64,000 nt of DNA, taken from positions 80,854 through 144,853 of the forward strand of contig BAABNI010000004.1 of NCBI GenBank assembly GCA_040365065.1, read 5' to 3'. Below the pieces are notes generated by a model. That model was not told the DNA's origin and made no database searches. It was given only the letters and a program-made list of their open reading frames with translations. Positions 34,313 to 62,693 of this stretch are shown here, one piece after another. Source of the stretch: Candidatus Pelagadaptatus aseana. GTDB taxonomy: Bacteria; Pseudomonadota; Gammaproteobacteria; Pseudomonadales; Cellvibrionaceae. Positions within the stretch are counted from its first letter, which is position 1. Every line of letters starts with the position of its first letter. The translations under genes were made by a program, and so were the position numbers.

Positions 34313-37300
34313 TTAATCTTTCTTACTGTAGAGTGCGTTCAACACTTCAAATTGTTGCGCAATGTAATCCCGGGTTGAGTTCAGCTGCGATACCAAGATG
34401 TCGTTAAAAGCAAACTGTCGGGCCAGCTGAGTCTGAAAGGCCTCAATCCGGTCATCCAGAGCCTGACGATCCTCATCCAGTTCAGCCAGCTCATCCTGCA
34501 GGCCGCTTTGCTTGATCCCCAGACCGCCGTCGCTATCAAGGAAATCCTTGAGGAAATCCTCCAGTTGCGCGGCAATCCCTCGACCAAACTCAATTTCGCC
34601 CCGGTTACCCAGATTGCCACCCAAAACATTGATGCGCAGATCTTCAACGGGAGTTCCGGTAGCACCAACCAAACGCTGGCCACTGCCCAACGCGGCATAG
34701 CCACCGATGGTACCAGCGACACTGGTACCAGACTCGAAAGTAAAATCATCGTCGGTGGTTTCTACAAGCCCCAAACTGCTACTGGCAAAGTTATTGGGGC
34801 TCTTCACATGAAAGCTTACGTCATTACCAAAATCAATTTTAAAGCTGCCACCCTCAGTAGAACCGTCATAGGTCACAGTGGCCAGAGTCAGATCTTCACC
34901 CCGGACCAAGCCGGCCTCAATGCCAAAACCGTCCAGTGCGCCACTGCCGTCAAAACCGGAACTGTAGACCGCATCACCGGCAAACAGGTTGAGCGGATCC
35001 ACCATATTTTTTACTTCCAGTGAGGCGCCGCTGCCCACTGTGTCGGAAGTAATGACACCATTTTTGCTGTTGCTCTGAAAGTAGAGATTGTTGGCTCCGT
35101 CCAGCTCAACGGTAATATCACCCGCGGCAAAATCACTGCTGGCATCCAGCGCGGCATCGATCTGCCCCTGAATGTAGGCCTGCACTTCCGATATGGTATC
35201 CCCTGCTGCGCCATCGGCGTCCAGAGTGATATCAAAGTCGGTACCGGCCATACTCAGAGTAAACGTCGACGTATTGGCTCCCGAAAAATCTTCGGTGCCG
35301 GTTAATGCGGTAGCCCCCAGCGCCGTTTTGGCGCCCGAACCATCGGCAACCACATTAAGCGTTTCAGTGGGTCCGGTAGCCACGGTTTTCAACACCAAAC
35401 CGGTACCGGAACGATCGGCCACCAGATTACCGGCAAGCCCCGGCGTGGCATCAATCTGATCCTGTACGCTTTGCAAAATATCGTCGATGGCATCGGTATT
35501 GCCATCACCATCGATATCGGAGGCCGCCGTCCCATTGGCGTCGATCACCAGATCATAGCGGGTCCCATTGTACTCAACACCAAAGGCGCGGGGGTTCGCA
35601 GTAAAATCAATGGCGCCAGCGGTGATATCCACCGTACCAGCTCCGGTTTCAGCGCCTTTTCTGGCCGCAATAAAGTTGCTATCAGTGGCAATGGCCGTTT
35701 GTAAAGCCAACGCAATATCACTGCCATCATTACTGTTGATAGCCACCGATAAGGTATCAGACGTTACCCCGTTGGCTTCAATGGTAAATTCTGCCGTATC
35801 GTTGAGAGTTGAGCTCAACGCATCCGTTACTGATAAGGCGGACAGCTCTGTAAATTCACCGGAACCAGCGGACAGGCCAATGCTGGAGGCCATGGAAGAT
35901 TCGGCGGCAGACACAATAAAACCCAACTGCCGACCATCGCCGTTTTTCTCAAAACTCATGGTCAGCTTGCCAGTTTCCAAATCGCCCTCAAAAGCGACAT
36001 TGGCGGTCAAACCTTCCGCTTTGAAATTCGAGTCATCGTTAATGGCAGCCTGAATAGCCTGCGCCAGATCATCGCCACTGGAGTAGCTGCCATTGGCAAT
36101 CTGGATACTGTTGGAGGTCACCCCATCCACACTCAGGGTAAAATCATCGTTGCCGCCGTTGATGGTCACCGCACTGGCAAAATCATCGGTGGTTTTTAAC
36201 AGCGAAACGGTATCGCCTGAATGGCCACCCTGCTGCGGTTCACGCAGCCCTAACGTTAACGCGGTAGTGGTATCGGTACTGACAAACCCCAAATTGGAAG
36301 AGGCACCGTAACTGCCGGAAGTCAGTTCAAACCGCTGTTCTGCAGCGTTGTAATTCACCTCTACCGATTTACCGGCATCCTGAATATTAACGTCGGTATT
36401 GATGGCACTCTGTATGGCTTCAGCCAACTCATCACCCGTGTAGGTACCGCGTGCCAGAGTAATCTGATCGGAGTATTGGCTGTCTACCTGAACTTTGAAA
36501 CCATCGTTGCCTGCATCAATAACAAAGGGCTCTCCGGAAGTCGACAGGCCAAGCAACTGAGCCTGTTCCGCCACACGGGAAATAACAATTTCGTAGTCAC
36601 CGGCCTGAGTATCATTGGAGCTGCTGACGTAATCAATCAGCGAGTCTGTCGCGGTGGCACCAATGCCAAACAGGGTACTGAGTGACTCGGCATCGGACTG
36701 CAGGGCTGACTGAAACGTGCCACTGTCGAATATCAAAAGGCCGGTTTCACCGTTGGTGGAAATCCCCACCTCGGACATGGTCCTGAAGTCGGTACCATTG
36801 AGTGAACTGACCGCAGACGTCAGAATATTTTGCGAAGAAGTAATCAAGCGACGAATGGTATTATCACCGGTAAAAATACTGCCCAAGCCGGTATCGGGGT
36901 CAAAGGCAGTTAACCCATTCACGGTGGTTTTGAGTTCATTGTAAGCGTCTACCATGGTCTGCATCCGCTCGGTTACTGCCGCAGTATCCCGCTCTACTGT
37001 CAGGGTAACAGGGCCAGCACTGTCCTGCTTGAGGTTGAGCGTCAGACCATTAATTACCCCGGCCACCAGATTCGATTCACGGGTAATATCCAGACCATTC
37101 ACTTTAAATTCGGCGTTCTTGGCATCCACCGTCTGTAACATGGTGGTTGAGTCGTCATCGAAAGACAGGCTGTCGAGACCATTGGATGGGTTGTTAACCG
37201 AGACCGTAAAACCGTTATTTTCACCGGTTTCTTCTGAGGTAAAGAGCAAACGATAGCCACTGCCGGTATCAACAATGGTGGCTTCGATTCCCATATCCGC

Positions 37301-37822
37301 GTTATTCACCGCATCGCGAATACCGGTAATGGTGTGGTTACTGGCGTCGATATTGAGCTTTCTGACAGCGGCCTCAGAATCGGCTGTAAACGAAAAGCTG
37401 GGTGTGCCGGAGTCGTAATCTACATCACCAAAGGTGAACACCAGCTCACCTTCTCCCAAAACGGCGTCGAGATCACCGTACTCGGCAGAGGCAATGGTTT
37501 GTGAACGAGCCAGCTGGCTGGTTTCAATGGTGTAAACGCCCGGGGAAGCCAGAGAACTGGCAGTTGCCGTTAAAGCTGAGTCATTGGTCGAGGAGGTGGT
37601 ATTGGTCTGAAAAGACGAAGTCAGGGTCAGGGCATTGGCGGCGGCACGCAGGGACTCTGCCTGACTGGCGACATTGCCCAGCTCAGACACCTGAGTATCG
37701 AGATTTTCCTGCTCGGCATTGATGCGCTTGTCGGCTGATTCACGCTCTACCGCGACCAGGTCATCAATCAATTCGGAGGTTAAAACCCCGGAACCGATAC
37801 CTACTGATGAAATTGAAGCCAT
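34313..37822 (-). CDS. fliD: Flagellar filament cap protein FliD, giant (1169 aa)
   Basis: The N-terminus MASISSVGIGSGVLTSELIDDLVAVERESADKRI and the C-terminus ...RIEAFQTQLARQFAFNDILVSQLNSTRDYIAQQF are canonical FliD coiled-coil ends. AEFKVNGLDITRESN is the FliD core. About 600 aa of extra repeat modules lie at residues ~430-1030. Confidence 0.9.
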   Translation of the reverse strand: MASISSVGIGSGVLTSELIDDLVAVERESADKRINAEQENLDTQVSELGNVASQAESLRAAANALTLTSSFQTNTTSSTNDSALTATASSLASPGVYTIETSQLARSQTIASAEYGDLDAVLGEGELVFTFGDVDYDSGTPSFSFTADSEAAVRKLNIDASNHTITGIRDAVNNADMGIEATIVDTGSGYRLLFTSEETGENNGFTVSVNNPSNGLDSLSFDDDSTTMLQTVDAKNAEFKVNGLDITRESNLVAGVINGLTLNLKQDSAGPVTLTVERDTAAVTERMQTMVDAYNELKTTVNGLTAFDPDTGLGSIFTGDNTIRRLITSSQNILTSAVSSLNGTDFRTMSEVGISTNGETGLLIFDSGTFQSALQSDAESLSTLFGIGATATDSLIDYVSSSNDTQAGDYEIVISRVAEQAQLLGLSTSGEPFVIDAGNDGFKVQVDSQYSDQITLARGTYTGDELAEAIQSAINTDVNIQDAGKSVEVNYNAAEQRFELTSGSYGASSNLGFVSTDTTTALTLGLREPQQGGHSGDTVSLLKTTDDFASAVTINGGNDDFTLSVDGVTSNSIQIANGSYSSGDDLAQAIQAAINDDSNFKAEGLTANVAFEGDLETGKLTMSFEKNGDGRQLGFIVSAAESSMASSIGLSAGSGEFTELSALSVTDALSSTLNDTAEFTIEANGVTSDTLSVAINSNDGSDIALALQTAIATDSNFIAARKGAETGAGTVDITAGAIDFTANPRAFGVEYNGTRYDLVIDANGTAASDIDGDGNTDAIDDILQSVQDQIDATPGLAGNLVADRSGTGLVLKTVATGPTETLNVVADGSGAKTALGATALTGTEDFSGANTSTFTLSMAGTDFDITLDADGAAGDTISEVQAYIQGQIDAALDASSDFAAGDITVELDGANNLYFQSNSKNGVITSDTVGSGASLEVKNMVDPLNLFAGDAVYSSGFDGSGALDGFGIEAGLVRGEDLTLATVTYDGSTEGGSFKIDFGNDVSFHVKSPNNFASSSLGLVETTDDDFTFESGTSVAGTIGGYAALGSGQRLVGATGTPVEDLRINVLGGNLGNRGEIEFGRGIAAQLEDFLKDFLDSDGGLGIKQSGLQDELAELDEDRQALDDRIEAFQTQLARQFAFNDILVSQLNSTRDYIAQQFEVLNALYSKKD

Positions 37823-37913: not shown

Positions 37914-37921
37914 CGGTTAAT

Positions 37922-39805
37922 TTAGCCCGATGTTTTCACGAAAAATTGATACATATTGGCGAAAACATCGGGATTTTTTTCCTCAAAATCCTGCCAATTA
38001 GCCAAGTTTCTAACTCCTTCCACCCCAAACTGGCTATAAAATTTTTCCCTATAGTTTGGATTCTCAAGTGTCATGCCCAAAAAATCCAATTGATACTTTT
38101 TAAGTAAAGCCTCAATTTGAGGGATGGTGTAGCGGTGTTCCTGTGCATGAAACAACAAATCCCGGCAAGGGCTGGTAGCGTAAAAGTCACCAAAGCCTGT
38201 AACCAGCCTGCAATCAGGTCGGGCCTCTTCAGACATCAAAGCCTTCCTGACGTTCCGGATATTTTCCAGATCCGGCGACATGCCACTGTTAATGTAGGCA
38301 TTCCTCACTGCCACAACACCTCGACGGGCCGTTTCACTGTAGAGCCCCAGCCGGATAGTCCCTCCAGGCCTGATTACCTCCAACAAAGCCTCCAGACCCG
38401 CCTCGGGATTTTCCATGTGATGCAAAACCCCGGCGCATTCAATGGCATCAAACTGCTTGCCAAGCAGGCCAACCTCCATCAAATCCATATGCAGCAGCTG
38501 AAGATTGTTTACTGAATACTCATCTGCCTTCATTTGAGCGTAAGCCAGACTCCTTCTGGAGATATCGATGGCTGTCACCTTGACATCGGTTTGCAGCGCG
38601 CACATCAGAGGATGCTTGCCGGTGCCACAACCGGCCACCAGAACCTCTTTAATCTTGCCAGAGCCTGCGACCCGCTCCTCCTCAGAGAGCACCTGCTCCA
38701 TTCGCATAATGTAATCAACCCGCCCATCCGGAACAGACAATTGACGCCAACGTGGATAGGGGTTTTCCTCATACTGCTCCCTCACCTTGAGAGAGATGGA
38801 ATCAGCAATACTGCCAACACTGGATAGGGATTTTAGACACGCCCGTTCTTTTTTCTCTTCAAGAATTGCCGTATAAAACATGCCATTCAGGCTCTCGGGC
38901 CACAAATCTTCGGTCAAGCTCGACAGGGTTTCGTAACTATCAAAATCCCTGACCGGCTTGTACATAGCAAGCAACAGCAGCAACCCCTCAACAACAATCG
39001 GCTTAAACCCTTGCTGTGCAACCTGTTCTTTCAGCAAGCCTTCCAGCTCAGCAATCAACTGAAGCTCATCAGACTCCACCACATGAACGTATTCGTTCCA
39101 CTTATTCTGCCAGGCAATGGCCTGAACCAGAGGCACATAATCATCGGGAAAATCCATCTTAACCAGAGCATCAAAAAACACCTTTCTGCGCACCGCCACC
39201 AACACAGGCTCCAGCTTGGCGCTGCGGCAGTAATCTTTCTCCAGAACTTTTATCAGCAACTGATCAGACGCCAGTTCAACAATATCCGGCTCATTTTGCC
39301 CGCCATATTTGAGAGCCAGAAGCTGGGTACCCAGCTTGTGAACCTTGCCAGCCAAAAGCTCGTCGTCCCAAAACGACAAAACATCTTTTTCCACCATGGG
39401 CGAATAATTCAAGCAGTTCATTCTGTCCAGACAGTGACGAACGATATTTCTGATTGAATCGGACATCCTCAGCGGTTCCGCTAATTCGTGAGACCGCACA
39501 TAAGCACTTGAAAGATCATTGTTTCGATGCGCCAGAATCACTTCGGCCATCAATACTTGCTGCCCTTCCAGGTCATTTGCGGCAAGGTTTCGGGTATCAC
39601 TCAGGACACGTTCAGCATCCACGAGCCTGCCAGCATTAATCAGGCACTCGAGATATTGAATCGCATACACAAAACCCAATTCACTCTCAGGCCAGCCCTG
39701 CTCAAGAATTTGAGCCGCCTGCAGCCATTCTCTGGCTTGCGCCTTTACCGTTGCCTGCTCAAGCAAAAGCGCCGACGAAGAGCTGTGCTGGGTTAAATTT
39801 GTCAT
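37922..39805 (-). CDS. TPR-like repeat protein fused to a class I SAM-dependent methyltransferase (paralog A)
   Basis: 627 aa. The helical-repeat N-terminal half is followed by ENPYPRW, motif I VLVAGCGTGKH, VTAIDIS and FDAIECAGVLHHM. The C-terminal ~270 aa align throughout with the ORF at 45532-47586. Confidence 0.75.
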   Translation of the reverse strand: MTNLTQHSSSSALLLEQATVKAQAREWLQAAQILEQGWPESELGFVYAIQYLECLINAGRLVDAERVLSDTRNLAANDLEGQQVLMAEVILAHRNNDLSSAYVRSHELAEPLRMSDSIRNIVRHCLDRMNCLNYSPMVEKDVLSFWDDELLAGKVHKLGTQLLALKYGGQNEPDIVELASDQLLIKVLEKDYCRSAKLEPVLVAVRRKVFFDALVKMDFPDDYVPLVQAIAWQNKWNEYVHVVESDELQLIAELEGLLKEQVAQQGFKPIVVEGLLLLLAMYKPVRDFDSYETLSSLTEDLWPESLNGMFYTAILEEKKERACLKSLSSVGSIADSISLKVREQYEENPYPRWRQLSVPDGRVDYIMRMEQVLSEEERVAGSGKIKEVLVAGCGTGKHPLMCALQTDVKVTAIDISRRSLAYAQMKADEYSVNNLQLLHMDLMEVGLLGKQFDAIECAGVLHHMENPEAGLEALLEVIRPGGTIRLGLYSETARRGVVAVRNAYINSGMSPDLENIRNVRKALMSEEARPDCRLVTGFGDFYATSPCRDLLFHAQEHRYTIPQIEALLKKYQLDFLGMTLENPNYREKFYSQFGVEGVRNLANWQDFEEKNPDVFANMYQFFVKTSG

Positions 39806-40472: not shown

Positions 40473-43400
40473 TTACTGCAGTAGTGACAGAGCCTGCTGA
40501 GGCAAGGCATTGGCCTGTGCCAGTACGGAGATACCAGCCTGCTGCAGCACCTGCGAACGGGACAGGGCAGCGGTTTCAGCCGCAAAGTCCGCATCCTGGA
40601 TTCGACTGTTTGCAGCAGTCAGGTTCTCAGAAGTGATCGCCAGGTTAGAGATGGTAGATTCAAAGCGGTTTTGAATCGCACCCAAGTTGGCTCGCTCACC
40701 GGAGATAGATTGCAGCGCGTTGTCGATTGCAGTCAGGGCTTCGTTAGCACCTTCGAGAGTGGAGATATCGATTTCATCGATAAAGATACCACGCTCGGTC
40801 GCACCGAAGGAGCCCTGAGCAAAGCTCAGACCAGCCAGTGCGGAAGCACCGTTACTACCCGCTTCTACTTCAATCTCACCAGAGCTGCTCAGCTGCACTG
40901 AAGAGTAGGTAGTAGCCGCAGTATTGGCGTAATTCAAAGAAGCATTATTGCTGATATCGGCTTCGTTGATGCCGTCCTGACCAGCACTCAGACCGATGGC
41001 ATTACCAAAGTTGGCCACACCTTCGTTGTCGATCGCTACAGAGATGTTACGACCATCTTCAGCAGTCAGGGTAATGCTCACACCGTTATCTTCAGCAGTT
41101 ACACCGGTTTGACCCGATACAGCGTTGATGGCATCGATGGCAGAACCACGGTCCTGATCGGCATCACCGGTCAGAACAACACCGTTGGTCTGTACACCGT
41201 TGATGTAAACGCTACCGGAAGAACCTGCGGCAGCCACTGCGCCTGTTCCGTCACCACCAGTTACCACAGTTTCGTTAACTGTAGCAGTCACACCAGTACT
41301 GTCGCTGGCACGGTTGATGGCCGCAGCAACTGCGATACCGGAGGCAGACGCGTCACTGGACTCGGCGGTGGTATCGGATGCTGTGTCATCAGATGCCAAA
41401 GAGGCACCAATGGCTGTTCCGTTAATAACCAGGTCACCATCATCCAGGCTATCCACAGTTACCGCACCGGCTTGGGCTTCACTGCCGTCTACCGCAGAAC
41501 CACTTACGGCGAAAGTACCGTCAGTCAGACGAATCTGGCTACCGGAACCAGTGGCTTCGTCAGTAAAGGTCAGGGTGCCATCGGCATTTGCCACAACGGT
41601 GGAGGCATCAAACGCTGCACCAATGGCTTGTACCTGATCTTCAATTTCAGCGGCCAGGTCGGCCAGAGTGTTATAGCTGCCATCAGAAATGGTGATGGTG
41701 TTCTCGGTAGTGCCACCGTCAGCAGAGTAGGTAAAGGTGTTATTACCTTGCGCTGCGCTGATCGACAGAGGATCGGCATTACCGTTGGAGTCAACAAAGG
41801 TACCTGCAGCCAGTGTTCCGCTGCCGTCAGCCACACTGAAGGCACCGGTTGTTGCAGTACCTGCAGTCGCAGCACCGTTAACACCAGCGGTTGAGGTCGC
41901 AGTCAGATCATCATCAGCCGCCACAATTTCATCAGCGGTAGCGGTAGACAACTCAACGGTACCACCGGAATTAGAGCTGATTACAACCTGATCACCAACA
42001 GCTGTGGCAGTAATGCCGGAACCAGCCAGAGAAGTATCCGCGGCGTACTGGATAACGGCGGCCAGTTCTGCAGCGTTAGTTGGTGGGTTGGCTGATGCAG
42101 GATAGCCACCATCGGCAACCGCGGCAGCAGAATCCAATTCCAGATCGGCTGCGCCAGCACCATCCACATCAATACCAATGGTATCGGCACCACCGGCACC
42201 GGCAGTCAGAGAGAAGCCAGACAGGAAGGCTGACACATCGGTAATAACGCTATCGCCGTTGGCCAGTTGCTGTACTGAATTACCCTGATTAGCTACCTCA
42301 ATGGTGTTGGCACCAGTTGAGGAGTCGGCCACCACTACGCTACTGGCAGCACCAGTGCTCTGGGAAGTCAGCAGCACATTCAGGCCATCTTCGGAGACCG
42401 AAGCTTCAACGGTACCCGCCAGACTGGTAGAACCAATCGCGGTATTCAAGGCCGCAGCAAAAGTAGCCGCATCGGTATAGGTCGCACCACCAATGGTGAT
42501 GTCCACCGCCGAATTACCATCAACAGCAATACTTAGCTCATCCAGGTTGTTACCGGTATCAGACACCAACGCGTTAACGCCGTCGAAGGTAAAATCAATG
42601 GTTGCAACACCGGCCGTACCGTTATCCGCCGCAGAACCACCATCGGTAGTCGTTACAGCAGTTGGGATGGCAATGTTACCGGAAGAACCGGTTCTTACAG
42701 ACACAGAAGACGCATCACCGGTAGTTGCCGAGGTGAAGGTCAAGCCACCGGAACCGTTATCGGAAGCAGTCACCAGACCGTTCAGAGCACTGCCGGAAAT
42801 GGCGTTATTCACCGCATCAGCCAATTGGGCCGCGTCGTCGTACTCACCCGCGCCGGAGCCGGCATCGTAGGTAGAGCTCAGCTGAACCTGAACAAAAGAA
42901 GCACCATCGACAGAAATTTCGAAGGTGTTATTGGTGGCATTCACCACGGTGTTGGCAGCAATATTCATGTCACCGGTAGTAAAAGTACCGGAAGTGGCGG
43001 CTGTCAGAGAGCCAGCTTCAACACTGCGCGCAGAACTGTTAACCAGGGCTTGACCGGCTTGGTAGTCGCCTACGGTCAGACCTGCGTTGGCAATATCATC
43101 ATTACCGGTTCCATCACCACCACTGACACTGATGGTACCTTCACCACTCAGAGTGAAACCACCGTAGCTGGTACCTTCAGACAGACCAGTAGCCGCTTCA
43201 AAATCTGCAGAAGTACCGGACAAACCGCTGAAGCTAACGTCGATATTACGACCATCAGCCGCCTTCAGAATCACACCGCTGGACTGACCACCATCTTCAG
43301 CGATCACACCGGTTTGATCCGACTTGGCATTAACCGCAGAGATAACCGCATTACGGTCATCGTCAGAACTTGCACCACCCGTGGAGATATTAATGTCTAC

Positions 43401-53967: not shown

Positions 53968-54915
53968 TCACAAACTCGCTAAATTGACAGTTTTGCCATG
54001 AAAGATATTGGTAATCTTTTTAGCGTAAGCCGGGTCTGTGGCATAACCGGCATCTTGCAGCCCCTGAATGTACTCTAAGGGTTCGGATGCCTTTTGCAAC
54101 GCATCTTTATATCTTGGATTAGACTGCAGAAAATCAACGTAATCGGCAAAACTTTGCCCGTAAGATTCATAGCGGCGAAATGCTGCCACCTCAGGTTTGG
54201 GCAAACCATTGCGATATTCCAAGGTACGCACCTGAACACTGTCGCCATCCCATCGACTGTCAGCCTTGATGTTAAACAGGTTAAAACTGTTTTCACCACG
54301 GGTATTGTGGATCACATGCTTGCCCCAGCCGGTTTCCAGAGCCGCCTGAGCCACCAGAATCTTGGGATTAACACCGAGTTCCTCTGCGGCTTTTTTAGCG
54401 TGGGGCATGACCGCCTTAACAAACTCTTCCGGTGTCTCAGCCAGAGGGGCTTTGATTCCAACCGAGGTAACCTCTTGCAAATACTTCTTGGCTTTAAATG
54501 GTTCGTCAAGCTGCCCCAGCTCACCATTATTTTTCGCCTGATCAGCAGAACCGTAATTGCGTCTTAACTGGCGAACCAATGCATCAGCCAGTCCGACACC
54601 CTTGCCTTCGCTTAATGAAAGCGCCAATTGGTGATCGAGCATATCGCGATGAAAATTCATCTCGGAGCTATTGAAGATACTGTCTTTTTCAAAGACGGCA
54701 TTGGCCTGGCGCATACTCTTGAGCATGCTGTGCATTAAAATGGATTCGAACTGCTTGGCAATCTGTTCAAGGGCCGCATCTTTATCTTTGGCACCAAGAC
54801 GTCGAATTCCCTGCAGACTGTTGAGGTCCGTATAGTTGGATTGTGCCTGCTGCAGGGCCATACCTGCTTTTTGATCCATCATAATAATTCCAACGTCGGG
54901 AATGGCCTTTCGCAA
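53968..54915 (-). CDS. flgJ: Flagellar rod assembly protein / peptidoglycan hydrolase FlgJ
   Basis: Rod-binding N domain (AKQFESILMHSMLKSMRQA) plus a C-terminal glucosaminidase/muramidase domain (AALETGWGKH...NLFNIK...YATDPAYAKK). The probable start is ATG 54882 (MMDQKAG...). Confidence 0.9.
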   Translation of the reverse strand: MRKAIPDVGIIMMDQKAGMALQQAQSNYTDLNSLQGIRRLGAKDKDAALEQIAKQFESILMHSMLKSMRQANAVFEKDSIFNSSEMNFHRDMLDHQLALSLSEGKGVGLADALVRQLRRNYGSADQAKNNGELGQLDEPFKAKKYLQEVTSVGIKAPLAETPEEFVKAVMPHAKKAAEELGVNPKILVAQAALETGWGKHVIHNTRGENSFNLFNIKADSRWDGDSVQVRTLEYRNGLPKPEVAAFRRYESYGQSFADYVDFLQSNPRYKDALQKASEPLEYIQGLQDAGYATDPAYAKKITNIFHGKTVNLASL

Positions 54916-54989
54916 ACCCTGGGCAGACTCCGCCTCTGTATTCGAAGCCTGGCCAGGGGTGCGAAAAACGTTGTTAAACTACTGAATTG

Positions 54990-56099
54990 CTATATCACTA
55001 TCAACTCGGCCTGTAAGGCGCCGGCCTGTTTCATGGCCTCCAGGATGGCCATCAAATCGCCGGGCGCCGCGCCAACCAGATTCACCGCCCGGACAATATC
55101 ATCCAGCGTTGGACCCGGTGAAAACTTGAACATGGGGTTCTTCTCTTCATCAATCCCCACATTGCTTTCCGGTAACACCACCGTTGTACCATCTGCCAGA
55201 GCATCCGGTTGACTGACTTGCACCGCTTCATCCACGGTTACCGTCAGGCTGCCATGAGTAACGGCTACGGGTTTAACCCGGACATTCTGCCCCACCACGA
55301 TGGTACCGGTGCGGGAATTGATAATAACCTTGGCAGCCTCTTCGCCGGGATCTACTTCGATGTTTTCCAGCAGTGACAGAAAATTAACCTTGTGGGCCGG
55401 GTTAACAGGGGCATCGACCATAATGGAAGTTGAATCCATGGGCCGTGCCACATCGGGGCCTAGCAATTCATTAATGCTTTGAGCAACACGTTTGGCCGTC
55501 GTAAAATCCGAGCGGTGCAAATTAAAGACAATGGGTTTGCCATTGGAAAAATTATCGGGCACCGAGCGCTCTACCACGGCACCATTGGGAATGCGACCAA
55601 CACTGGGGACATTGACCGTAATTTTGGAACCGTCAGCACCCTCGGCACCAAAGCCACCCACAATCAAATTACCCTGAGCAATGGCGTAGGTATTACCATC
55701 AATCCCTTTTAAAGGTGCCATCAACAAACTGCCGCCACGCAGGCTTTTGGCGTTACCGATGGACGAGATGGTCACGTCAATTTCCTGACCAGGTTTGGCA
55801 AAAGGCGGCAGTTCAGCATGCAGAGAAACCGCCGCAACGTTTTTAAGCTGCATCCGGGCACCCTCGGGAATGGTGATGCCAAATTGCTTCATCATGCTGT
55901 TAAAAGACTGGGTCGTAAACGGCGTCTGATTGGTTTGATCACCACTGCCATCCAGTCCAACCACCAGGCCATAGCCCACCAGCTGATTGGATCGAACACC
56001 GGCAATGGATGCCAAATCTTTGATACGCTCTGACATGGCCGGTGTACTCATCAGCCCCAGAGCAATTGAGACAATCGTCAGAATTTTTTTCATCTTCAC
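54990..56099 (-). CDS. flgI: Flagellar P-ring protein FlgI
   Basis: 369 aa. A signal peptide is followed by [31 protein letters not shown], the canonical FlgI start. Confidence 0.95.
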
Positions 56100-56117
56100 A
56101 CACTCACTTCCGACAAA

Positions 56118-56816
56118 TTAGAACGGCCAAATTGGGCTGTTAAAGAATCGGGTTAACCACCCTGCTGCTGTATTGTCAGCCAATTGTCCGGTGCCACTGT
56201 AGGTAATGCGCGCATTGGCAAGTTTGGTAGACATAATCTCATTATCCGGAGAAATATCATCAGGGCGAATGATGCCGCTGATGCGGATGTATTCATCACC
56301 ACGATTCAACGTCATCCACTTTTCTCCGCGAACGACCAAGTTACCATTCACCAGTACTTCGGAAACCGTCACAGTGATACTGCCATCGAGCTGGTTACTC
56401 TGATCGGCGTCTGCCTCTCCGGTAAATTCCCGGTTCTGTTCCAGATTGGTAGCCAAACCTAAATTGCTGAACGTAGGATTGGAACCCAGCAAGGTATTGC
56501 CTGCACTGTTTTCATTAAAATCCAGTTCACTTTCCTTGGTCATGGATACATTGGTTGTCTTGGTCGAGGAGGTTCTTTCATTGAGAACAATGGTAATAAT
56601 GTCCCCTACTCTGTGTGCCTTACGATCTTCAAACAGCGACATGCCGTAATCCGGCCTATAAATAGCACCTTCATTGGCTCTGGGAACCGCCATGGCAGGG
56701 TCATAAACCGGAGCGTAGCGCGGGTCACCCGGAACCGGAGGTTGCTGAATCACACAGGCACTCAGTGATGCTACCGCACCCACGACTGCCAGATTTTTAA
56801 ATAATTTGGAGAGCAT
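56118..56816 (-). CDS. flgH: Flagellar L-ring lipoprotein FlgH
   Basis: 232 aa. Lipobox LSAC. Motifs HRVGDIITIVLNE and IRPDDISPDN. Confidence 0.95.
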   Translation of the reverse strand: MLSKLFKNLAVVGAVASLSACVIQQPPVPGDPRYAPVYDPAMAVPRANEGAIYRPDYGMSLFEDRKAHRVGDIITIVLNERTSSTKTTNVSMTKESELDFNENSAGNTLLGSNPTFSNLGLATNLEQNREFTGEADADQSNQLDGSITVTVSEVLVNGNLVVRGEKWMTLNRGDEYIRISGIIRPDDISPDNEIMSTKLANARITYSGTGQLADNTAAGWLTRFFNSPIWPF

Positions 56817-56854
56817 ATCTATTACCTCTAACGCTTCAGCAACCGGTTACATCA

Positions 56855-57640
56855 TTACAGGGTTTGGGTAATAAACTGCAACATGGAATCGGCCGTCGAT
56901 ACGACTTTCGAGTTGAGCTCGTAAACCCGCTGGGTGGTGATCATATTCACCATCTCTTCAACAATATCCACATTGGAATTTTCCAGTGTGCCCTGCAGGA
57001 TTTCGCCCATGCCATTTTCACCGGGCGTACCATTGATGGGATCACCACTGGCGGCTGTTTCCAGAAACAGGTTGCCACCGACACTTTGCAGACCGGAAGG
57101 ATTAATAAAATCCACCAAATCAAACTGACCGATTTGCGTCGGGTTTGGATCACCTTCCTGATAGGCGTTGACGATGCCATCGGTACCAATGGTAATTTTG
57201 TTGGTGCCTTCCGGTACATTGATGTTGGGTTCCATCAACAGGCCACTGGAGTTCACCAGATCGCCATCGGAATTAATTTGCAACTGACCATTACGGGTGT
57301 AAGCGGTATCGCCATTGGGCAACAACACCTGCAAGAAGCCGCGACCATCAATCGCCAAATCCAGCGCTTGCTCGGTGACCTGCAAAGTCCCTTCGGTAAA
57401 CTGTTTATTGGTACCCGCCACACGCACACCCACACCCAGCTGCAAACCGGAGGGTAATTCATTGTCGCGGTTGGTCTGACCACCCGGTTGGCGCTGAATC
57501 TGATACAGCAGGTCTTCAAACACCGCCCTATCGCGTTTAAAACCCACCGTCGAGGCATTGGCCAGGTTGTTGGAAATGGTGCTCAGCTGTTTGTCCTGAG
57601 CGCTTAACCCGGTTTTACTGACATATAGTGCGGCGTGCAT
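56855..57640 (-). CDS. flgG: Flagellar distal rod protein FlgG
   Basis: 261 aa. MHAALYVSKTGLSAQDKQLSTISNNLANASTVGFKRDRAVFEDLLYQ... and the C-terminal LENSNVDIVEEMVNMITTQRVYE. Confidence 0.95.
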   Translation of the reverse strand: MHAALYVSKTGLSAQDKQLSTISNNLANASTVGFKRDRAVFEDLLYQIQRQPGGQTNRDNELPSGLQLGVGVRVAGTNKQFTEGTLQVTEQALDLAIDGRGFLQVLLPNGDTAYTRNGQLQINSDGDLVNSSGLLMEPNINVPEGTNKITIGTDGIVNAYQEGDPNPTQIGQFDLVDFINPSGLQSVGGNLFLETAASGDPINGTPGENGMGEILQGTLENSNVDIVEEMVNMITTQRVYELNSKVVSTADSMLQFITQTL

Positions 57641-57663
57641 AGGTTCACCTCATCAAGTGAAAA

Positions 57664-58407
57664 TTAGGATTGAGAAAGCAACTTGGAGGAAGATTCCGAG
57701 TTCTTCTCAACCGTCTGCATCATTTTTAATTGCATTTCGTATTGGCGTGACAGGCTCAACACCTCGGTAAATTCATGGATGGTGTTGACGTTACTGCCCT
57801 CCACAAATCCCGGCGCCACAGTGACATTGACATCCACCGGCGCAATGCCACCATCTTTCAGGCGAATCAGGCCGTCCTCGCCCTTTTCAATATCTTCCCA
57901 AACCGGACGGACCAGTTTGATCTGATCTACCTGAGCCAATTCTTCCGGTCCATCACCGAGAATCTGAACACTGACAATACCGTCGTTGGAGATCATTATT
58001 TTCTGATCCGGTGGAATCGAGATTGGACCTCCCGTGCCAATAATGGGCAGGCCTGTGCTGGTTCGCAGAATACCGTTGGCGTCTACCGACAAATCACCGA
58101 CTCGGGTGTAGGCTTCCTGGCCCGCGCGATCCTGAACGGCAATCAGACCCTCCCCTTCAATGGCAATATCCAGATCACGGCCGGTTTCAATCAACGGCCC
58201 GGGTACAAAATTGGTGGCCGGATTTTCGGTCATGGCGTAGGCGCGGGTAGGATGCCCGTCGCCGTAATAAACCCCCATACTGCGTGCCTGAGCAAAGTCA
58301 GCACGGAAACCCGTGGTATTGGCGTTGGCCAGATTATTTGAGTGCGCTGCCTGGGCCATCATGTTGTTCTTGGCCCCGGTCATTGAGATATATAGCGCTT
58401 TATCCAT
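57664..58407 (-). CDS. flgF: Flagellar proximal rod protein FlgF
   Basis: 247 aa. MDKALYISMTGAKNNMMAQAAHSNNLANANTTGFRADF... and the C-terminal VEGSNVNTIHEFTEVLSLSRQYE. Confidence 0.9.
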   Translation of the reverse strand: MDKALYISMTGAKNNMMAQAAHSNNLANANTTGFRADFAQARSMGVYYGDGHPTRAYAMTENPATNFVPGPLIETGRDLDIAIEGEGLIAVQDRAGQEAYTRVGDLSVDANGILRTSTGLPIIGTGGPISIPPDQKIMISNDGIVSVQILGDGPEELAQVDQIKLVRPVWEDIEKGEDGLIRLKDGGIAPVDVNVTVAPGFVEGSNVNTIHEFTEVLSLSRQYEMQLKMMQTVEKNSESSSKLLSQS

Positions 58408-58523: not shown

Positions 58524-58695
58524 AGAGATCCTTCACTTCGTTCAGGATGACATGGCGCCACTTCGTTCAGGATGACATGGCGTCACTTGATTCAGGGTGA
58601 CACGGATTTGCGCCACCATAAACCTGACATCCTCCCTGTCATCATGACGACCGCTGCTAACGTCATCCTGACGACCAAAGGGAGGAAGGATCTCT
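58524..58695. repeat. Composite REP/MITE-like element (172 bp) between flgE and the flgF promoter
   Basis: Left end AGAGATCCTTCACTTCGTTCAGGATGACATGGCG. This is followed by two partial tandem copies (CCACTTCGTTCAGGATGACATGGCG; TCACTTGATTCAGGGTGACACGG). Right end CGTCATCCTGACGACCAAAGGGAGGAAGGATCTCT. The ends are inverted: AGAGATCCTTC / GAAGGATCTCT and TCAGGATGAC / GTCATCCTGA. Confidence 0.75.
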
Positions 58696-58700
58696 ATTTA

Positions 58701-61700
58701 TTAACGAAGATTAATAATGGTCTGGGTAGTCTGGTTAGCCGTCTCAATGGTCTTCGAGTTTGCCTGGAAGTTACGCTGGGCAATAATCAAATTCACCAAT
58801 TGTTCGGACAGATCCACGTTGGACTCTTCCACCGCGCCAGACTGAATCACACCCAGTGCCGCCGTGCCGGGTGTACCAATGTTCGGCACACCGGATTCAA
58901 AGTTCTCAGCCCACATGGTATCACCCACCGGCTGTAGACCCTGAGAGTTGGCAAATTCAGCCAAGGCAATCTGTCCCAGCGTCTGGGCCTCACCATTGGT
59001 AAAGCGGGCAAAGATGATACCGTCGTCATCAATGCTGATGCCGGACAAACGACCGGTAGTAAAGCCGTTTTGGTCCACATCATTCACGGCAAAGTCGCTA
59101 CCGAACTGTGTGGTGCCCATCAGATCAATGGCAAAGTTGGAACTGCTTGGAGGCTCAGGGATGGGCAAAGTACCTCCCTGCAATTGATTCTGTGGACCCA
59201 GGGCACCATTCGGCTGACCATCAGCATCCAGTGGTTCCCAGTTGGAGATCAACACCTCATCGGACAACAGCGTATTGGCGGTACCATCCTGGTTAAAGAA
59301 CAGGTTAAAGGTCGCGCGAGTCGGCAGAGTATTGTCTGGTGGCGGCAGGGTGGTGATTGGATCACCCACATCGGCACCGTCAATCAACACATGCATCTGC
59401 CAGTGGTTCTGCGATGTGGTTGGATCGGCCGGATCGTAAGGTTGTTTCACAAAATACTGGGTCGCGATATGGGAGTTACCCAGACTGTCGTAAATGGTAA
59501 CCGAAGTCGCATGGTTGTAGGTGGTCTGATCGTTCGGATCAAACTGGTTGATCACGAATGGCTGGAAAGTGGTTGCCGTAAACGGACCAAACAAACCAAT
59601 GGCCGGAGGCGTCGGATCGGTAGCGGTATAGCCCTCATCCAAGACAATATCGATGGCGCCACCGACAATCACCGCACTGGGGTTGCCATTCACGCCTTCG
59701 GCGCGGTTATTGGCACCATCTGCGCCCTGATACAGCGTGCCCACCAGATTAGGCACCGTATTCAAACCCAACACATCGTTGGTGACATTGGTAATCCGTA
59801 CCGAGTGGTTGATACCGGGTTGTCCGGTTTCAAAATAGATCTGGTTGGTAGCCGCATCCAGAGCCACAGTCACATTACCAACACCGGCGGCGGTATCCAC
59901 TGCAGCCTGAACGGCCGCCAGAGTTGTAGCTGGATCAGGAGCAGCACCCAGATCGGCAGCGCCACCCATGGCCGTTTGAATCGTCAGCAGATTGAGAGTA
60001 TCCAAACCACCCCCCACATTGTCCAACAGAATACTGCCGGCGACACCCGTGGTTGCGGTCGAGAAACTCAAGGCAAAATTGGTGGGATCCATATTAACGA
60101 TCACATCACCAGGCGCTACCGTTGCGGCGTCTACGGCTGCCTGAATCTGAGCTTGCAATTGGGCTGGCGTCACCGCTGAGCCATCAACAAAACCGGTCAA
60201 ATCGACGTTGGCCACTGCTGGGCCCTGGATGGTTAAATCAAAAGTCGTGGTCATGGCGGTTGACAGGACAGTGTCCAGAGTCGTACCAGCCACGGGGGTA
60301 CTGCCGTTCAGAATCAAATCGTTATTAATACCACCGAGGTCCACCGTAACAAAACCCTGACCATCGACGGACAGATCCAGAGTCGGCGACGGAACTTGAG
60401 TCCACCAGTTTTCAGAACCGGTCACAACGGTACTGGCATTCGGGGTCTGAGCAACAGTGGCCGTTGCCGTGCCATTGTTAAGAGGATCAGCCTCCAAAAT
60501 ACTGCCAACGGTGGAGGTATCCCCCTGAATGGCAATGGAGTCGCCGTCGTCCGTACTGCTGAATTCAAACACCAGATCATCACCCACAGAGGATTCCACG
60601 GCCAACGTACCGGTTGCAGCATCAAAAGTGGCCGAGACACCGGGCAAGGTAGAAGTGGTCAGCGCATTGATTTGGGTTTCCAGATCCTGCAGCGTGTCAC
60701 CAGTCAGGGCAACATTATTCAGTGTAACCACACTGTTACCGTTGATGTTGGTAAAGCTGGAGAGAGTTGCCATGGTAGTGGCCGTAGCCGAAACACCGGA
60801 CAGTGCATTCATCTCGGAGGCCGTTTCCGCTGCAGAGTTACCCTCAACGGCGCTGTAAGTCACCACGTTGCCATCGGGATCCGTGATATCGATTGATTGC
60901 AAAGGGTAGCCATTGTCTACGGCTGCCTGACCACTGCTGTCGGAAATACGCCCACCGCCTACAGGCAAACCCAGAACCGAGGCTGCATCACCACCTCGAT
61001 ACAAGGCATTGACCAGATTAGGTGAACCACTGGCGCCCTGCAGCCCCAGAATATCGGTGTTTACTACCTGTGTAATTTGAATGGTATTGGTGGCACCGTC
61101 GTTGTTGGTTTCAAAGTAAACCCGGCCGGTAGCGGCATCAACGTGAACGTCCGCCAGATCGGAACCCACTGCGGTATCCAAACGCGCATTCAATTGAGCT
61201 TCCAGCTGCGCCAAAGTCGCCTGCGGCCCAATATCGCCAATAATGACCCGAACCGGAGCGGTGCCATTTACAGAGATTTCAAAACCGGCACCGTCGCTGC
61301 CGGTATTCTGCAGACCCAATGGCGTAGTCAAACCGAGAGAATCCGTACCCGCCAGACTGTCAATGGATAGAGTCTGGGTAGCACCGGTAGCAATCGTCTC
61401 AAAGCTGATGGAACCTGAACCCGCCGGGAAGTTATTGTTGACCGCCTGAATCTGACCGGCCAGAGCGGAACCGCCAATCAGGACATTCAGTTGGGTAACC
61501 AACTGGTTTACGTCATCGTTATTCAGACCCGGGGTTACCGCATCGGCAGCAATGGCTGCCGCTTCGATATCCAGAGTTACCTGAGTACCATTGGCACTCA
61601 GAGTCACCGTGCTGGCACCACCGCCAGCAATGGTGGAAACCACAGTGGCATCAACCGTGGCCGAACCCGACGCAGAAGCCGGTGCCGGTGGGTCAATTGC

Positions 61701-62693
61701 GGTGAAATCCGGTGTTGGTACTGTAAACACGGTAGCGGCCTGATCGGTGACAGCCGGTGAATTGGTATTACCGTTAGTGACACTCACTTGAGAGGACTCA
61801 CCGGAAACCAGCGCTTGAAATTCCAGGTGGTAATCACCGCCACCGTCATCCACAGCAACCGCAATCACATCAATAGGATCTTGCGAGGAGTTAACCGTTG
61901 GTGAAAACAGCTGAGAGTTAATCACACCAGCCAGCGTGCGCAGGTCATTAAAGGTATTAATGGCAGCCGGCGCACCAGCCGCATTATCCAGCTGTACCGA
62001 GACGGTACCATTATTTGATGTGGCACCACTGAGCTGCACATCGAAGGTGATTGGGGTCTGGGTAAAATCGTTAACCAGTGGCAGGTTAAAACTGCCTGAC
62101 AGCAAAGTAGAGGTGGTGTCATTGAGCAGTCCCACCTGACTGACACCAATGGCATTGCCGTCGGTGACAAAGGTGGTGCCGGAGCGCTGCAGTACTTCCT
62201 CGGTTGCATCCAGGTTCAGGGTGGATTCAACCAATGTGGTTTGTCTTGGCGGTTGGTTGCCCGTCTGAATCTGCAGATCGCCCAGCACGCCCCCGACTAC
62301 ACCGTTGGCATCCGCCTGAAAACCCTGCAAATTAGCGCCAACGTTATTGACGATAAAGCCGTCTTTATCCAATCCAAGCGTACCGGCGCGGCTGAATACC
62401 TGATCACCACCATTATCCAGAACAAAGAAGCCGCTACCACTGATCGCCAGATCCAGAGAGTTTTCGGTAAAGGAAATATTGCCCTGAGTAAATTGTTGGG
62501 CAACGTCCTGCAGCCGGACACCACTACCGATGGTGTTGCTGCCAGCCCCCAGAATCGTGGTGGCATAAACATCACCAAATTCAGCCCGTGAGGCCTTAAA
62601 ACCGACCGTTGAAGCATTGGCAATGTTATTACCGGTGATCTTCAAGTCGGCATTTGACGCCCGAATACCACTGAGTGCTGTATTAAATGGCAT
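58701..62693 (-). CDS. flgE: Flagellar hook protein FlgE, giant (1330 aa)
   Basis: N-terminus MPFNTALSGIRASNADLKITGNNIANASTVGFKASRAEF. The D2-type segment TSVTIYDSLGNSHIATQYFVK is present. C-terminus SGAVEESNVDLSEQLVNLIIAQRNFQANSKTIETANQTTQTIINLR. About 870 extra residues lie between ~172 and ~1040. Confidence 0.95.
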   Translation of the reverse strand: MPFNTALSGIRASNADLKITGNNIANASTVGFKASRAEFGDVYATTILGAGSNTIGSGVRLQDVAQQFTQGNISFTENSLDLAISGSGFFVLDNGGDQVFSRAGTLGLDKDGFIVNNVGANLQGFQADANGVVGGVLGDLQIQTGNQPPRQTTLVESTLNLDATEEVLQRSGTTFVTDGNAIGVSQVGLLNDTTSTLLSGSFNLPLVNDFTQTPITFDVQLSGATSNNGTVSVQLDNAAGAPAAINTFNDLRTLAGVINSQLFSPTVNSSQDPIDVIAVAVDDGGGDYHLEFQALVSGESSQVSVTNGNTNSPAVTDQAATVFTVPTPDFTAIDPPAPASASGSATVDATVVSTIAGGGASTVTLSANGTQVTLDIEAAAIAADAVTPGLNNDDVNQLVTQLNVLIGGSALAGQIQAVNNNFPAGSGSISFETIATGATQTLSIDSLAGTDSLGLTTPLGLQNTGSDGAGFEISVNGTAPVRVIIGDIGPQATLAQLEAQLNARLDTAVGSDLADVHVDAATGRVYFETNNDGATNTIQITQVVNTDILGLQGASGSPNLVNALYRGGDAASVLGLPVGGGRISDSSGQAAVDNGYPLQSIDITDPDGNVVTYSAVEGNSAAETASEMNALSGVSATATTMATLSSFTNINGNSVVTLNNVALTGDTLQDLETQINALTTSTLPGVSATFDAATGTLAVESSVGDDLVFEFSSTDDGDSIAIQGDTSTVGSILEADPLNNGTATATVAQTPNASTVVTGSENWWTQVPSPTLDLSVDGQGFVTVDLGGINNDLILNGSTPVAGTTLDTVLSTAMTTTFDLTIQGPAVANVDLTGFVDGSAVTPAQLQAQIQAAVDAATVAPGDVIVNMDPTNFALSFSTATTGVAGSILLDNVGGGLDTLNLLTIQTAMGGAADLGAAPDPATTLAAVQAAVDTAAGVGNVTVALDAATNQIYFETGQPGINHSVRITNVTNDVLGLNTVPNLVGTLYQGADGANNRAEGVNGNPSAVIVGGAIDIVLDEGYTATDPTPPAIGLFGPFTATTFQPFVINQFDPNDQTTYNHATSVTIYDSLGNSHIATQYFVKQPYDPADPTTSQNHWQMHVLIDGADVGDPITTLPPPDNTLPTRATFNLFFNQDGTANTLLSDEVLISNWEPLDADGQPNGALGPQNQLQGGTLPIPEPPSSSNFAIDLMGTTQFGSDFAVNDVDQNGFTTGRLSGISIDDDGIIFARFTNGEAQTLGQIALAEFANSQGLQPVGDTMWAENFESGVPNIGTPGTAALGVIQSGAVEESNVDLSEQLVNLIIAQRNFQANSKTIETANQTTQTIINLR

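Follow-up and report, generated by a model that had tools for sequence, protein, structure and literature searches.

Giant hook, junction, filament, and cap proteins of a marine gammaproteobacterium carry copies of one small folded module

Are giant flagellins accompanied by other flagellar components of corresponding size? Thomson et al. asked this in 2018, in a study of the flagellin only, which identified the giant flagellin of Bermanella marisrubri as the subunit of filaments measuring 30 nm or more in thickness (PMC6248924). The question is raised anew by a flagellar gene cluster of the uncultured marine gammaproteobacterium Candidatus Pelagadaptatus aseana (Cellvibrionaceae), which lies in a 64-kb stretch of contig BAABNI010000004.1 (the whole of the DNA analyzed, here called the window). 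A preliminary description of the window had reported four uninterrupted open reading frames (ORFs) encoding a hook protein (FlgE) of 1330 aa, a hook-filament junction protein (FlgK) of 1521 aa, a flagellin (FliC) of 1234 aa, and a filament cap protein (FliD) of 1169 aa, and the ORF list and the public gene call agree with it on lengths and positions (Table 1). All four are about three times as long as usual. Its statement that giant flagellins form thick filaments in a few marine gammaproteobacteria is borne out by the work just cited. As to the question of Thomson et al., the sequences of this locus and its relatives show that large size extends to the hook, the FlgK layer of the junction, and the cap but not to the rod and rings, FlgD, or FlgL. 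Measured lengths of these other proteins are ordinary, as had been claimed (FlgC 144, FlgD 235, FlgF 247, FlgG 261, FlgH 232, FlgI 367, FlgJ 304, and FlgL 416 aa). Starting from gene identity, insert positions, folded modules common to the four proteins, conservation, block exchange, and recurrence in relatives, we consider it likely that the giant proteins are the functional hook, junction, filament, and cap proteins of a polar-type flagellum, enlarged by outward-facing arrays made mostly of one module.

One module family in four giant axial proteins

Pfam matches at both ends of all four proteins, all of them above gathering scores, agree with the canonical termini noted in the preliminary description. 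FlgE has matches to Flg_bb_rod (PF00460; residues 3–33), D1 (PF22692; 83–142), FlgE_D2 (PF07559; 1043–1211), and Flg_bbr_C (PF06429; 1284–1329), passes the NCBIfam FlgE equivalog NF004238 (459.9 bits, cut-off 400), and is encoded between flgD and flgF. FlgK, encoded between flgJ and flgL, matches FlgK_D1 (PF22638; 94–327; 250 bits) and Flg_bbr_C (PF06429; 1481–1518; 28.5 bits, cut-off 23), and Salmonella FlgK (9go6) aligns with it over Salmonella residues 3–439, opposite residues 4–452 (E=1.6e-66). The flagellin ORF runs from a GTG (40473–44225; 1250 aa), and the public gene call starts at the ATG at 44177, giving 1234 aa; in GTG-ORF numbering, the protein matches Flagellin_N (PF00669; 21–159; 149.7 bits) and Flagellin_C (PF00700; 1164–1249; 91.3 bits). 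FliD matches FliD_N (PF02465; 11–108; 66.7 bits) and, in two stretches, FliD_C (PF07195; 142.3 bits), and residues 1–371 of Salmonella FliD align with its residues 1–379 (E=6e-34). Its score for the NCBIfam FliD equivalogs (242) stays under their cut-off (387), the match being split by the insert.

The limits of the four inserts were set by alignment to solved proteins of normal size. They agree within about 20–180 nt with those drawn in the preliminary description and match the outer-domain positions of solved FlgE, FlgK, and FliD, the exposed sites at which the central regions had been placed. Solved FlgE chains of 434–437 aa align to residues 1049–1330 only, starting from their own residue ~176, which puts the FlgE insert at the boundary of D1 and D2. 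Campylobacter FlgE has its extra domains at this hot spot too (C. jejuni residues 591–850 in 5jxl, equivalent to 1045–1330 here). On the Salmonella proteins, the insertion points lie after residue ~439 of FlgK and after residues ~371–379 of FliD. The compositional bias described earlier also holds on measurement: serine, threonine, alanine, glycine, aspartate, and asparagine make up 52–70% of insert residues, cysteine is absent from all four whole proteins, and each insert is strongly acidic, with a net charge of −74 to −99. The FlgE insert has no lysine and eight arginines in 875 residues and the FliC insert three lysines in 900, and depletion of lysine and arginine is far stronger in the inserts than in the conserved cores.

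All four inserts contain copies of one module. A profile seeded from one flagellin segment and iterated to convergence spans ~76 positions and finds 21 copies: six in FlgE (plus a weak seventh), five in FlgK, four in FliC, and six in FliD. These score 36–69 bits, values that are partly circular in that the copies also served as the training set; the best of 200 decoys shuffled within 100-residue windows reaches 7.7 bits. Profiles built with one protein left out detect copies in the omitted protein at best scores of 25.0 bits for FlgE, 24.6 for FlgK, 42.9 for FliC, and 27.0 for FliD, with decoy maxima of 4.0–7.3. Furthermore, the profile finds positional copies in orthologs on which it was not trained, from Maricurvus, Thalassolituus, Natronospirillum, Oleispira, and Pseudoteredinibacter, and for each module of the FliD insert, a copy occurs at the corresponding position in the FliD proteins of Maricurvus, Pseudoteredinibacter, and Thalassolituus. 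The module copies are only about 20–45% identical to one another. Within the window, the profile detects no module in FlgL.

Structure prediction, which the preliminary description had put forward as a check, returns folded domains. AlphaFold2 models one module copy as strand-strand-helix-strand-strand-strand with a pLDDT of 89.9 and flagellin residues 31–1204 with a pLDDT of 83.7 and no long disordered stretch; on these values, disordered or low-complexity linkers were rejected as the nature of the inserts. Pfam scans of the 21 copies and the whole proteins give no family that covers the module and detect no binding or enzymatic domain in the inserts. Flagellin_IN (PF07196) in particular matches one of the 21 copies, at E=0.024 and under its gathering threshold of 22.7 bits. 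Comparison by hhalign of the module with the IN-containing DE regions of flagellin gives a weak match (P=0.007–0.04, probability 1–5%) with the same secondary-structure order; a distant relationship between module and Flagellin_IN is possible.

The flagellin has the length (>1000 aa) and the layout of a giant flagellin, with two tandem Domain-Extension (DE) regions (DE1 and DE2, a duplication like the one described in PMC6248924) split by a DX region of 487 aa, and it is 51–55% identical at 100% coverage to the flagellins of Thalassolituus marinus and Natronospirillum operosum. A Foldseek search with its model returned solved flagellar filaments (E down to 4e-16) that match the flagellin core only. 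Thomson et al., who reported homologs of DX in flagellins only, proposed that it had arisen de novo (PMC6248924). Here, in contrast, DX turns out to consist of four module copies, and the same module occurs in FliD, FlgK, and FlgE, which revises the de novo proposal; a profile built without FliC recovers the DX modules at 10–43 bits (decoy maximum 4.6).

Searched against 1.84 billion representative proteins, the module profile gave 1393 matches at E<=1e-3. By core-sequence matching, the top 150 comprise 62 flagellins, 47 FliD proteins, a few FlgK, FlgL, and FlgE proteins, and 33 unassigned sequences, at least 3 of which were reassigned to FliD by a Pfam check. Some carriers are not flagellar, and the module is thus not confined to flagella. 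Among them is a family of 1225–1690-aa proteins (P0224, P0159, P0196, and about 14 others) with a conserved N terminus starting MPTKTERILSYLPGTFRA, for which no Pfam match and only a weak phage baseplate match (phrog_1160, E=4e-4) was found; further profile matches are DUF3383 phage-like proteins and one 6694-aa protein. In a literature search largely outside subscription journals, we found no description of a module shared among FlgE, FlgK, and FliD.

The sixth FliD copy lies outside the insert, in the head of the protein between FliD_N and FliD_C, where it is colinear with Salmonella D3 and occupies a segment that we take to be the D3 equivalent. A FliD-free profile recovers this copy at 9.2 bits. 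Among PDB sequences, the best matches to the module profile are C. jejuni FliD residues 144–201 and 166–221 (E about 1e-3; 1.2e-3 for 144–201), with the remaining FliD fragments at E=0.06–0.5, and the nonflagellar protein P0196 matches FliD profile positions 145–198. A Foldseek search of the module model against the PDB gave nothing significant; phage tail-sheath domains were best at E=0.3, and the FliD cap 9m6i followed at E=1.2. The module may be derived from, or share an origin with, the FliD head (D3) domain.

Table 1. Features of the flagellar cluster in the window (residue numbers refer to the protein named)
Feature	Residues	Window positions	Strand	Basis
flgE, hook protein, 1330 aa		58701..62693	-	uninterrupted ORF; Pfam; NCBIfam FlgE equivalog
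FlgE insert, 6–7 modules	171–1045	59559..62183	-	solved-structure alignment
FlgE modules	215–309, 361–446, 470–543, 645–725, 815–893, 893–971	61767–62051, 61356–61613, 61065–61286, 60519–60761, 60015–60251, 59781–60017	-	module profile
flgK, hook-filament junction protein HAP1, 1521 aa		49197..53762	-	uninterrupted ORF; Pfam; Salmonella FlgK alignment
FlgK insert, 5 modules	453–1400	49563..52406	-	solved-structure alignment
FlgK modules	749–826, 878–957, 992–1055, 1099–1178, 1237–1306		-	module profile
FlgK block homologous to flagellin DX	854–1320	49803..51203	-	absent from 1030-aa FlgKs; FliC similarity
fliC, giant flagellin, 1234 aa, DE1-DX-DE2		40473..44177	-	ORF; Pfam
FliC insert	176–1075	40953..43652	-	alignment to solved normal-size proteins
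FliC DE1	176–415	42933..43652	-	51% identical over 166 aa to DE2, E=1e-32
FliC DX, 4 modules	416–902	41472..42932	-	module profile
FliC modules	416–497, 546–619, 664–746, 812–888		-	module profile
FliC DE2	903–1075	40953..41471	-	duplicate of DE1; weak Flagellin_IN match at 1007–1056 (GTG ORF)
fliD, filament cap protein HAP2, 1169 aa		34313..37822	-	uninterrupted ORF; Pfam; Salmonella FliD alignment
FliD head module copy, D3-equivalent	140–211	37190..37405	-	between FliD_N and FliD_C; colinear with Salmonella D3
FliD insert, 5 modules	391–1060	34643..36652	-	solved-structure alignment
FliD insert modules	439–515, 558–637, 676–745, 745–827, 851–940		-	module profile
fliS, flagellin chaperone, 127 aa		33914..34297	-	Pfam FliS
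SAM-dependent methyltransferase, 627 aa, between flaG and fliD		37922..39805	-	Pfam methyltransferase domain, residues 385–487
flaG, 128 aa		39952..40338	-	Pfam FlaG
second fliS paralog, 146 aa as called, divergent from fliC		44548..44988	+	Pfam FliS; public gene call
TPR + SAM-methyltransferase protein, 684 aa, N-terminal TPR repeats		45532..47586	+	Pfam
flgL, junction protein HAP3, 416 aa, ordinary size		47934..49184	-	Pfam Flagellin_N + Flagellin_C
flgJ, flgI, flgH, flgG, flgF, all ordinary size		53968..58407	-	ORFs; Pfam; gene call
flgD (235 aa) + flgC (144 aa), ordinary size		62837..63994	-	ORFs; Pfam; gene call

Conservation, exchange, and recurrence of the inserts

The long ORFs are real genes, as the preliminary description had assumed. 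Each of the four giant proteins is identical on two contigs, one of which is BAABNJ010000003.1 (GCA_040362265.1), and the genes contain no DNA repeat longer than 34 nt, so there is nothing in them to mislead an assembler. A relative known from a 178-kb JGI contig (L012) has FlgE, FlgK, and FliD proteins that are 85–92% identical to those of the window (92% for FlgE, 85% for FliD) and equal to them in length within one residue. Compared with this relative, the inserts of FlgE, FlgK, and FliD show zero indels and dN/dS values of 0.053 (875 codons), 0.049 (948), and 0.078 (670), with 0.011, 0.036, and 0.050 in the respective cores; since dS exceeds 1 and is near saturation, these values are approximate, though far below 1. 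Such low values mark the inserts as conserved coding sequence. The FliC insert is 53% identical, with a dN/dS of ~0.30 over 870 aligned codons (core 0.227) and with indels, and the FliC of the relative (L012, positions 4311–8333) is 106 residues longer than the one here, at 1340 against 1234 aa. From these sequence comparisons, the filament surface appears to turn over much faster than the surfaces of hook, junction, and cap.

Exchange between flagellar genes is clearest in FlgK. The 1030-aa FlgK of Maricurvus and of the metagenome-assembled genome (MAG) L011 aligns to residues 1–853 and 1320–1521 only, and residues 854–1320 are therefore specific to the Pelagadaptatus lineage. FlgK residues 900–1321 are 33% identical over 470 aa to residues 443–902 of FliC from the same genome (E=1e-34), and the best match of the block is Maricurvus FliC residues 527–833 (42% identity, E=1e-51). 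In addition, the nearest neighbors of FlgK modules 3–5 are FliC modules 2–4, with the order kept. Judged by these alignments, a block of ~470 residues from the flagellin center has evidently been copied into FlgK in this lineage. All modules outside the FlgK block have positional orthologs in the same protein of other genomes, indicating that the arrays are mostly old and vertically inherited.

A scan of a genome collection with FlgK gave one locus (Maricurvus), and the survey of relatives rests on protein look-ups and a metagenome scan. Genomes with giant flagellins, in which the preliminary description had proposed to survey lengths, do carry other giant axial proteins, foremost Maricurvus nonylphenolicus and likewise Thalassolituus-like loci (Table 2). 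Among the latter, metagenome locus L045, whose FlgK shares 73% identity with the T. marinus protein, has an FlgE of at least 963 aa, and the related L020 has one of at least 1191 aa, both genes running off the edge of their locus. Within Cellvibrionaceae, FlgE mostly measures 810–820 aa, and twelve clusters have an FlgE of 1184–1603 aa. Giant FliD proteins of marine Gammaproteobacteria fall into length classes of about 1167, 1315, 1407, and 935 aa.

Table 2. Lengths (aa) of axial proteins in the window and in relatives
Source	FlgE	FlgK	FlgL	FliC	FliD
Pelagadaptatus (window)	1330	1521	416	1234	1169
JGI relative (L012)	1331	1522	416	1340	1169
Maricurvus nonylphenolicus KU41E (cultured, complete genome)	1193	1030	416	1347	1167
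MAG L011		1030	416	1223	1167
Pseudoteredinibacter isoporae		1022	417	841 (two copies)	1148
Simiduia curdlanivorans	820	1057	533		
Thalassolituus marinus		993	412	1255	1315
Oleispira MAG		992	412	1127	1319
Thalassolituus CP094879				957	1316
Natronospirillum operosum				1224	1316

Coordination was examined in a metagenome scan with an FlgK alignment, which yielded 80 loci in each of which gene lengths were measured. Near-constant lengths were found for FlgF (245–253 aa), FlgG (260–262), and FlgD (218–239), and wide ranges for FlgE (403–817), FlgK (544–1062), FliC (374–816), and FliD (464–1318), with upper ends of 1331, 1522, 1347, and 1319 aa when the named genomes are included. Lengths are rank correlated between FlgE and FlgK (0.51, n=30), FlgK and FliC (0.57, n=17), and FlgK and FliD (0.90, n=10). 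The control, near-invariant FlgF, correlates at about 0.48 with FlgK and FlgE, so shared ancestry explains at least part of the length signal, and length correlations were set aside as independent evidence of coordination. We read joint enlargement of all four proteins as real in at least two clades, with a coupling that is loose rather than obligatory. Of the "coordinated" gigantism proposed in the preliminary description, the part that stands is that the four are enlarged together in this genome while rod, ring, and cap-scaffold proteins are not; other lineages enlarge differing subsets.

FlgL measures 412–417 aa in nearly all relatives, which means that the junction is enlarged in its FlgK layer only. 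Enlarged FlgL proteins do occur in some lineages, with 533 aa in Simiduia (L009, positions 20274–21875), 557 aa in loci L037 and L038, and 657 aa in locus L086. The Simiduia FlgL has a weak module-like match at residues 312–364.

How the joint enlargement may be read

Axial flagellar proteins have an out-and-back topology. From this topology, together with the thick filaments of related giant flagellins (PMC6248924), we infer that the modules decorate the outer face of hook, junction, filament, and cap once these are assembled and that these structures are thick, acidic, and lysine-poor. In the model proposed here, each protein would retain its conserved ends, from which the inner tube is built, and would carry an array of folded domains at its outward-facing site, mostly ~76-residue modules, to which flagellin would add its two DE domains. 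Once exported by way of the central channel, the modules would fold outside the assembled structure, and the hook, FlgK junction layer, filament, and cap would thereby gain a thick outer protein layer that is acidic, cysteine-free, and nearly lysine-free. The arrays themselves would have grown by duplication within genes and by recombination between flagellar genes. One module family in all four inserts is what a common surface layer predicts, and such a layer may have a mechanical or protective role.

The preliminary description had gone further, to a continuous coat replacing a membrane sheath or glycosylation, which is conceivable. Pfam scans detected no sheath or glycosylation genes (Maf, pse, leg) in this cluster. 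A Thalassolituus with a module-free 957-aa flagellin (L006, positions 1–9681) has a Maf and NeuB/pseudaminic-type glycosylation island beside fliC. In T. marinus, whose 1255-aa flagellin bears modules, a small toxin-antitoxin pair occupies the position of the island (L004, positions 8749–9553). This contrast, between two genomes only, hints that protein domains may stand in for glycan.

Several observations count against our reading. Besides the circularity of the trained module scores, the leave-one-out scores are much lower than the trained ones, with some copies at 6–12 bits only, and the link between the module and FliD D3 is statistically weak, with E about 1e-3 by profile and no significance by Foldseek. 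Saturation of dS makes the selection estimates approximate, the window is only part of its contig, and the FlgF control correlates with the lengths of the exposed proteins. Enlarged proteins are already common in Cellvibrionaceae (FlgE ~810–820, FlgK ~1020–1060, and FliD ~1150 aa). The enterobacterial baseline used in the preliminary description overstated how rare such sizes are, the family norm being ~815 aa for FlgE, ~1000 for FlgK, and ~1150 for FliD. Enlargement is also a mosaic: Simiduia-type loci combine an FlgE of 817 aa and an FlgK of 1060 aa with a FliC of ~576–598 aa and a FliD of 692 aa, Pseudoteredinibacter has 841-aa flagellins with a FliD of 1148 aa, and locus L086 has an FlgE of 739 aa and an FlgL of 657 aa with an FlgK of only 574 aa. 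Given this mosaic, a single coat function for all four inserts is not required.

It is a tenable, if tentative, alternative that the proteins were enlarged independently, their outer loops tolerating insertions and the shared module reflecting a common pool of insertable domains rather than a jointly selected coat. The mosaic loci favor this view, as do the Thalassolituus in which a module-free 957-aa flagellin stands alongside a 1316-aa FliD, the FlgK lengths of 1030 and 1521 aa that occur alongside FliD proteins of one and the same size, and length correlations no stronger than that of the FlgF control; the same-protein positional orthologs of most modules likewise point to arrays that are old and evolve separately. 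Speaking for a joint process, all readable exposed proteins exceed about 1000 aa in two orders (Pelagadaptatus and Maricurvus in Cellvibrionales, Thalassolituus-like loci in Oceanospirillales), the correlations of FlgK with FliD and with FliC reach the values given above, and the transfer of a block from flagellin to FlgK shows that inserts are interchangeable along the axis.

A more far-reaching possibility, about which we are doubtful, is that the four inserts form one laterally bonded lattice of a single module, an unbroken sheath from hook to cap, and that the module came from the FliD head and spread by recombination. If this were true, each hook subunit would bring along about seven extra domains, and the hook could serve as a universal joint only by bending in a manner not described before.

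Alternatively, the modules might serve mainly nonmechanical ends: they might adhere to particles, oil droplets, or polysaccharide, or they might act as decoys for, or shields from, grazers and phages that bind flagella. We think this unlikely as their main function. The fast evolution of the FliC insert (its identity, dN/dS, indels, and length difference given above) is typical of diversifying pressure, the carriers are particle-associated or hydrocarbon- or alkylphenol-degrading marine bacteria, and the module also occurs in nonflagellar giant proteins. Weak profile matches link it to phage tail-sheath outer domains and to carbohydrate-binding modules, the latter at E=0.07–0.1, which is not significant. 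However, the hook, junction, and cap inserts, with dN/dS values of 0.05–0.08, better fit a structural role than an arms race, and the Pfam scans found no binding or enzymatic domain.

That a second set of normal size encoded elsewhere builds the flagellum, with the giant set accessory, conditional, or unexpressed, is very improbable. Room for such a set exists, in that the contig is 468 kb long and the window covers 64 kb of it, fliS is the last gene of the cluster and lacks the fleQ neighbor found in relatives, and the genome paper on Candidatus Pelagadaptatus aseana, which mentions 38 flagellar assembly proteins (PMC11985809), gives no per-gene counts. Yet the only rod and ring genes in the window are those among which the giant genes stand, in canonical flgC-L order. 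Purifying selection on the giant genes is strong, their arrangement is kept in every relative examined, and in B. marisrubri, isolated filaments were found to contain the giant flagellin (PMC6248924). Finally, although the source is metagenome assembled and the inserts are repetitive at the protein level, we reject the notion that the giant ORFs are assembly artifacts from collapsed or chimeric repeats, given the low identity between module copies, DNA repeats of at most 34 nt, identical proteins on two contigs, the same architecture in the complete genome of a cultured relative, and a diverged relative that keeps three of the four inserts in frame without any indel.

Neighboring genes and known systems

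The cluster has the canonical order flgC-D-E-F-G-H-I-J-K-L, followed by the divergent gene for the tetratricopeptide repeat (TPR)-methyltransferase, a gene for a FliT-like protein, and fliS, and then by fliC-flaG-methyltransferase-fliD-fliS. No further flagellar structural genes were found in the remainder of the window, which holds housekeeping genes instead. Beyond the terminal fliS lie TauD-like, AraC-type, and UmuC-like (impB/mucB family) genes (28790–33462). In Maricurvus and MAG L011, fleQ and a sensor kinase gene follow fliS; here the cluster stops at fliS, and these regulatory genes must sit elsewhere in the genome. Duplicated FliS chaperones, one encoded after fliD and one divergently from fliC, are kept in relatives, and a 93-aa gene adjoining the second fliS (44999–45280, plus strand) has a Maricurvus counterpart that matches FliT. 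The gap between flgE and flgF is unusually long (293 nt) and contains 2.8 copies of a 25-nt unit (CACTTCGTTCAGGATGACATGGCGC) at 58534–58602 with a 90% match.

Two S-adenosylmethionine (SAM)-dependent methyltransferase genes flank fliC. The 627-aa protein is syntenic in Maricurvus (641 aa), and in the closest relative, L012, a HigB-like toxin pair takes its place. The gene for the 684-aa TPR-methyltransferase lies beside the flgL/fliC/fliD genes in Maricurvus, L011, L012, Pseudoteredinibacter, and Oleispira and is partly visible at the edge of both Thalassolituus loci. These enzymes could modify the flagellar surface, a point of note given the lysine-poor inserts.

The architecture described here recurs in Maricurvus nonylphenolicus JCM 17778 (KU41E; NZ_AP031498.1), a strain that is in culture and whose genome is complete, which makes experiments possible. 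It sharpens a mechanical puzzle, as a universal joint has to be compressed and extended cyclically even when every hook subunit carries about 875 additional residues. It also offers a concrete route for growth of the flagellum, by amplification of a single small module inside genes and its transfer from gene to gene.

Among known systems close to this one are the giant flagellins of Oceanospirillales (B. marisrubri, Oleibacter marinus, Thalassolituus, and Oleispira), which have the same DE1-DX-DE2 layout as the flagellin here. The present host belongs instead to Cellvibrionales, and its FlgE, FlgK, and FliD are giant too; for these taxa, a literature search largely outside subscription journals returned no work on joint enlargement of the three. 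The flagellin of Geovibrio thiophilus (PDB 9au6) has outer domains D2–D5, of which its authors relate D4 and D5 to FliD D2, proposing growth by recombination with existing flagellar genes (PMC11532411). Its multidomain, strongly negative surface and the recombination process resemble what is proposed here. In that case, however, only the 792-aa flagellin was analyzed, the proposed donor was FliD D2 rather than a D3-like module, and no transfer involving FlgK or FlgE was described.

Flagellin_IN (PF07196) is a short strand-helix-strand motif that recurs in flagellins, hook proteins, and FliD, and the DE regions here match it weakly, but it has 55 positions against about 76 in the module. The outer domains of contractile phage tail sheaths (phage XM1 gp6, PDB 7kh1) are the best Foldseek match to the module, with a TM-score of 0.58 on the query and a probability of 0.94, and are likewise small domains outside a helical tube; the profile match is weak (E=0.086), and the Foldseek E value of 0.35 is not significant. 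Flagella sheathed by membrane (Vibrio and Helicobacter) or heavily glycosylated (Campylobacter, Maf dependent) offer functional analogies only, as other kinds of surface covering.

Campylobacterota likewise have extra outer domains on hook, junction, filament, and cap at once (in C. jejuni, FlgE of 851 aa, 5jxl; FlgK of 608 aa and FliD of 642 aa, 9gsx and 6sih), and one paper on Campylobacter discusses coevolution of hook and junction (PMC5691160). In comparison with that unrelated lineage, the host here is free-living and marine and the scale is larger (1169–1521 aa against about 570–850 aa), and the four proteins have in common a single repeated module family, of which we found no such description for Campylobacter. 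Outer-domain elaboration of axial proteins is itself already known; what is new here is the shared module together with a clear transfer of a block between flagellar genes.

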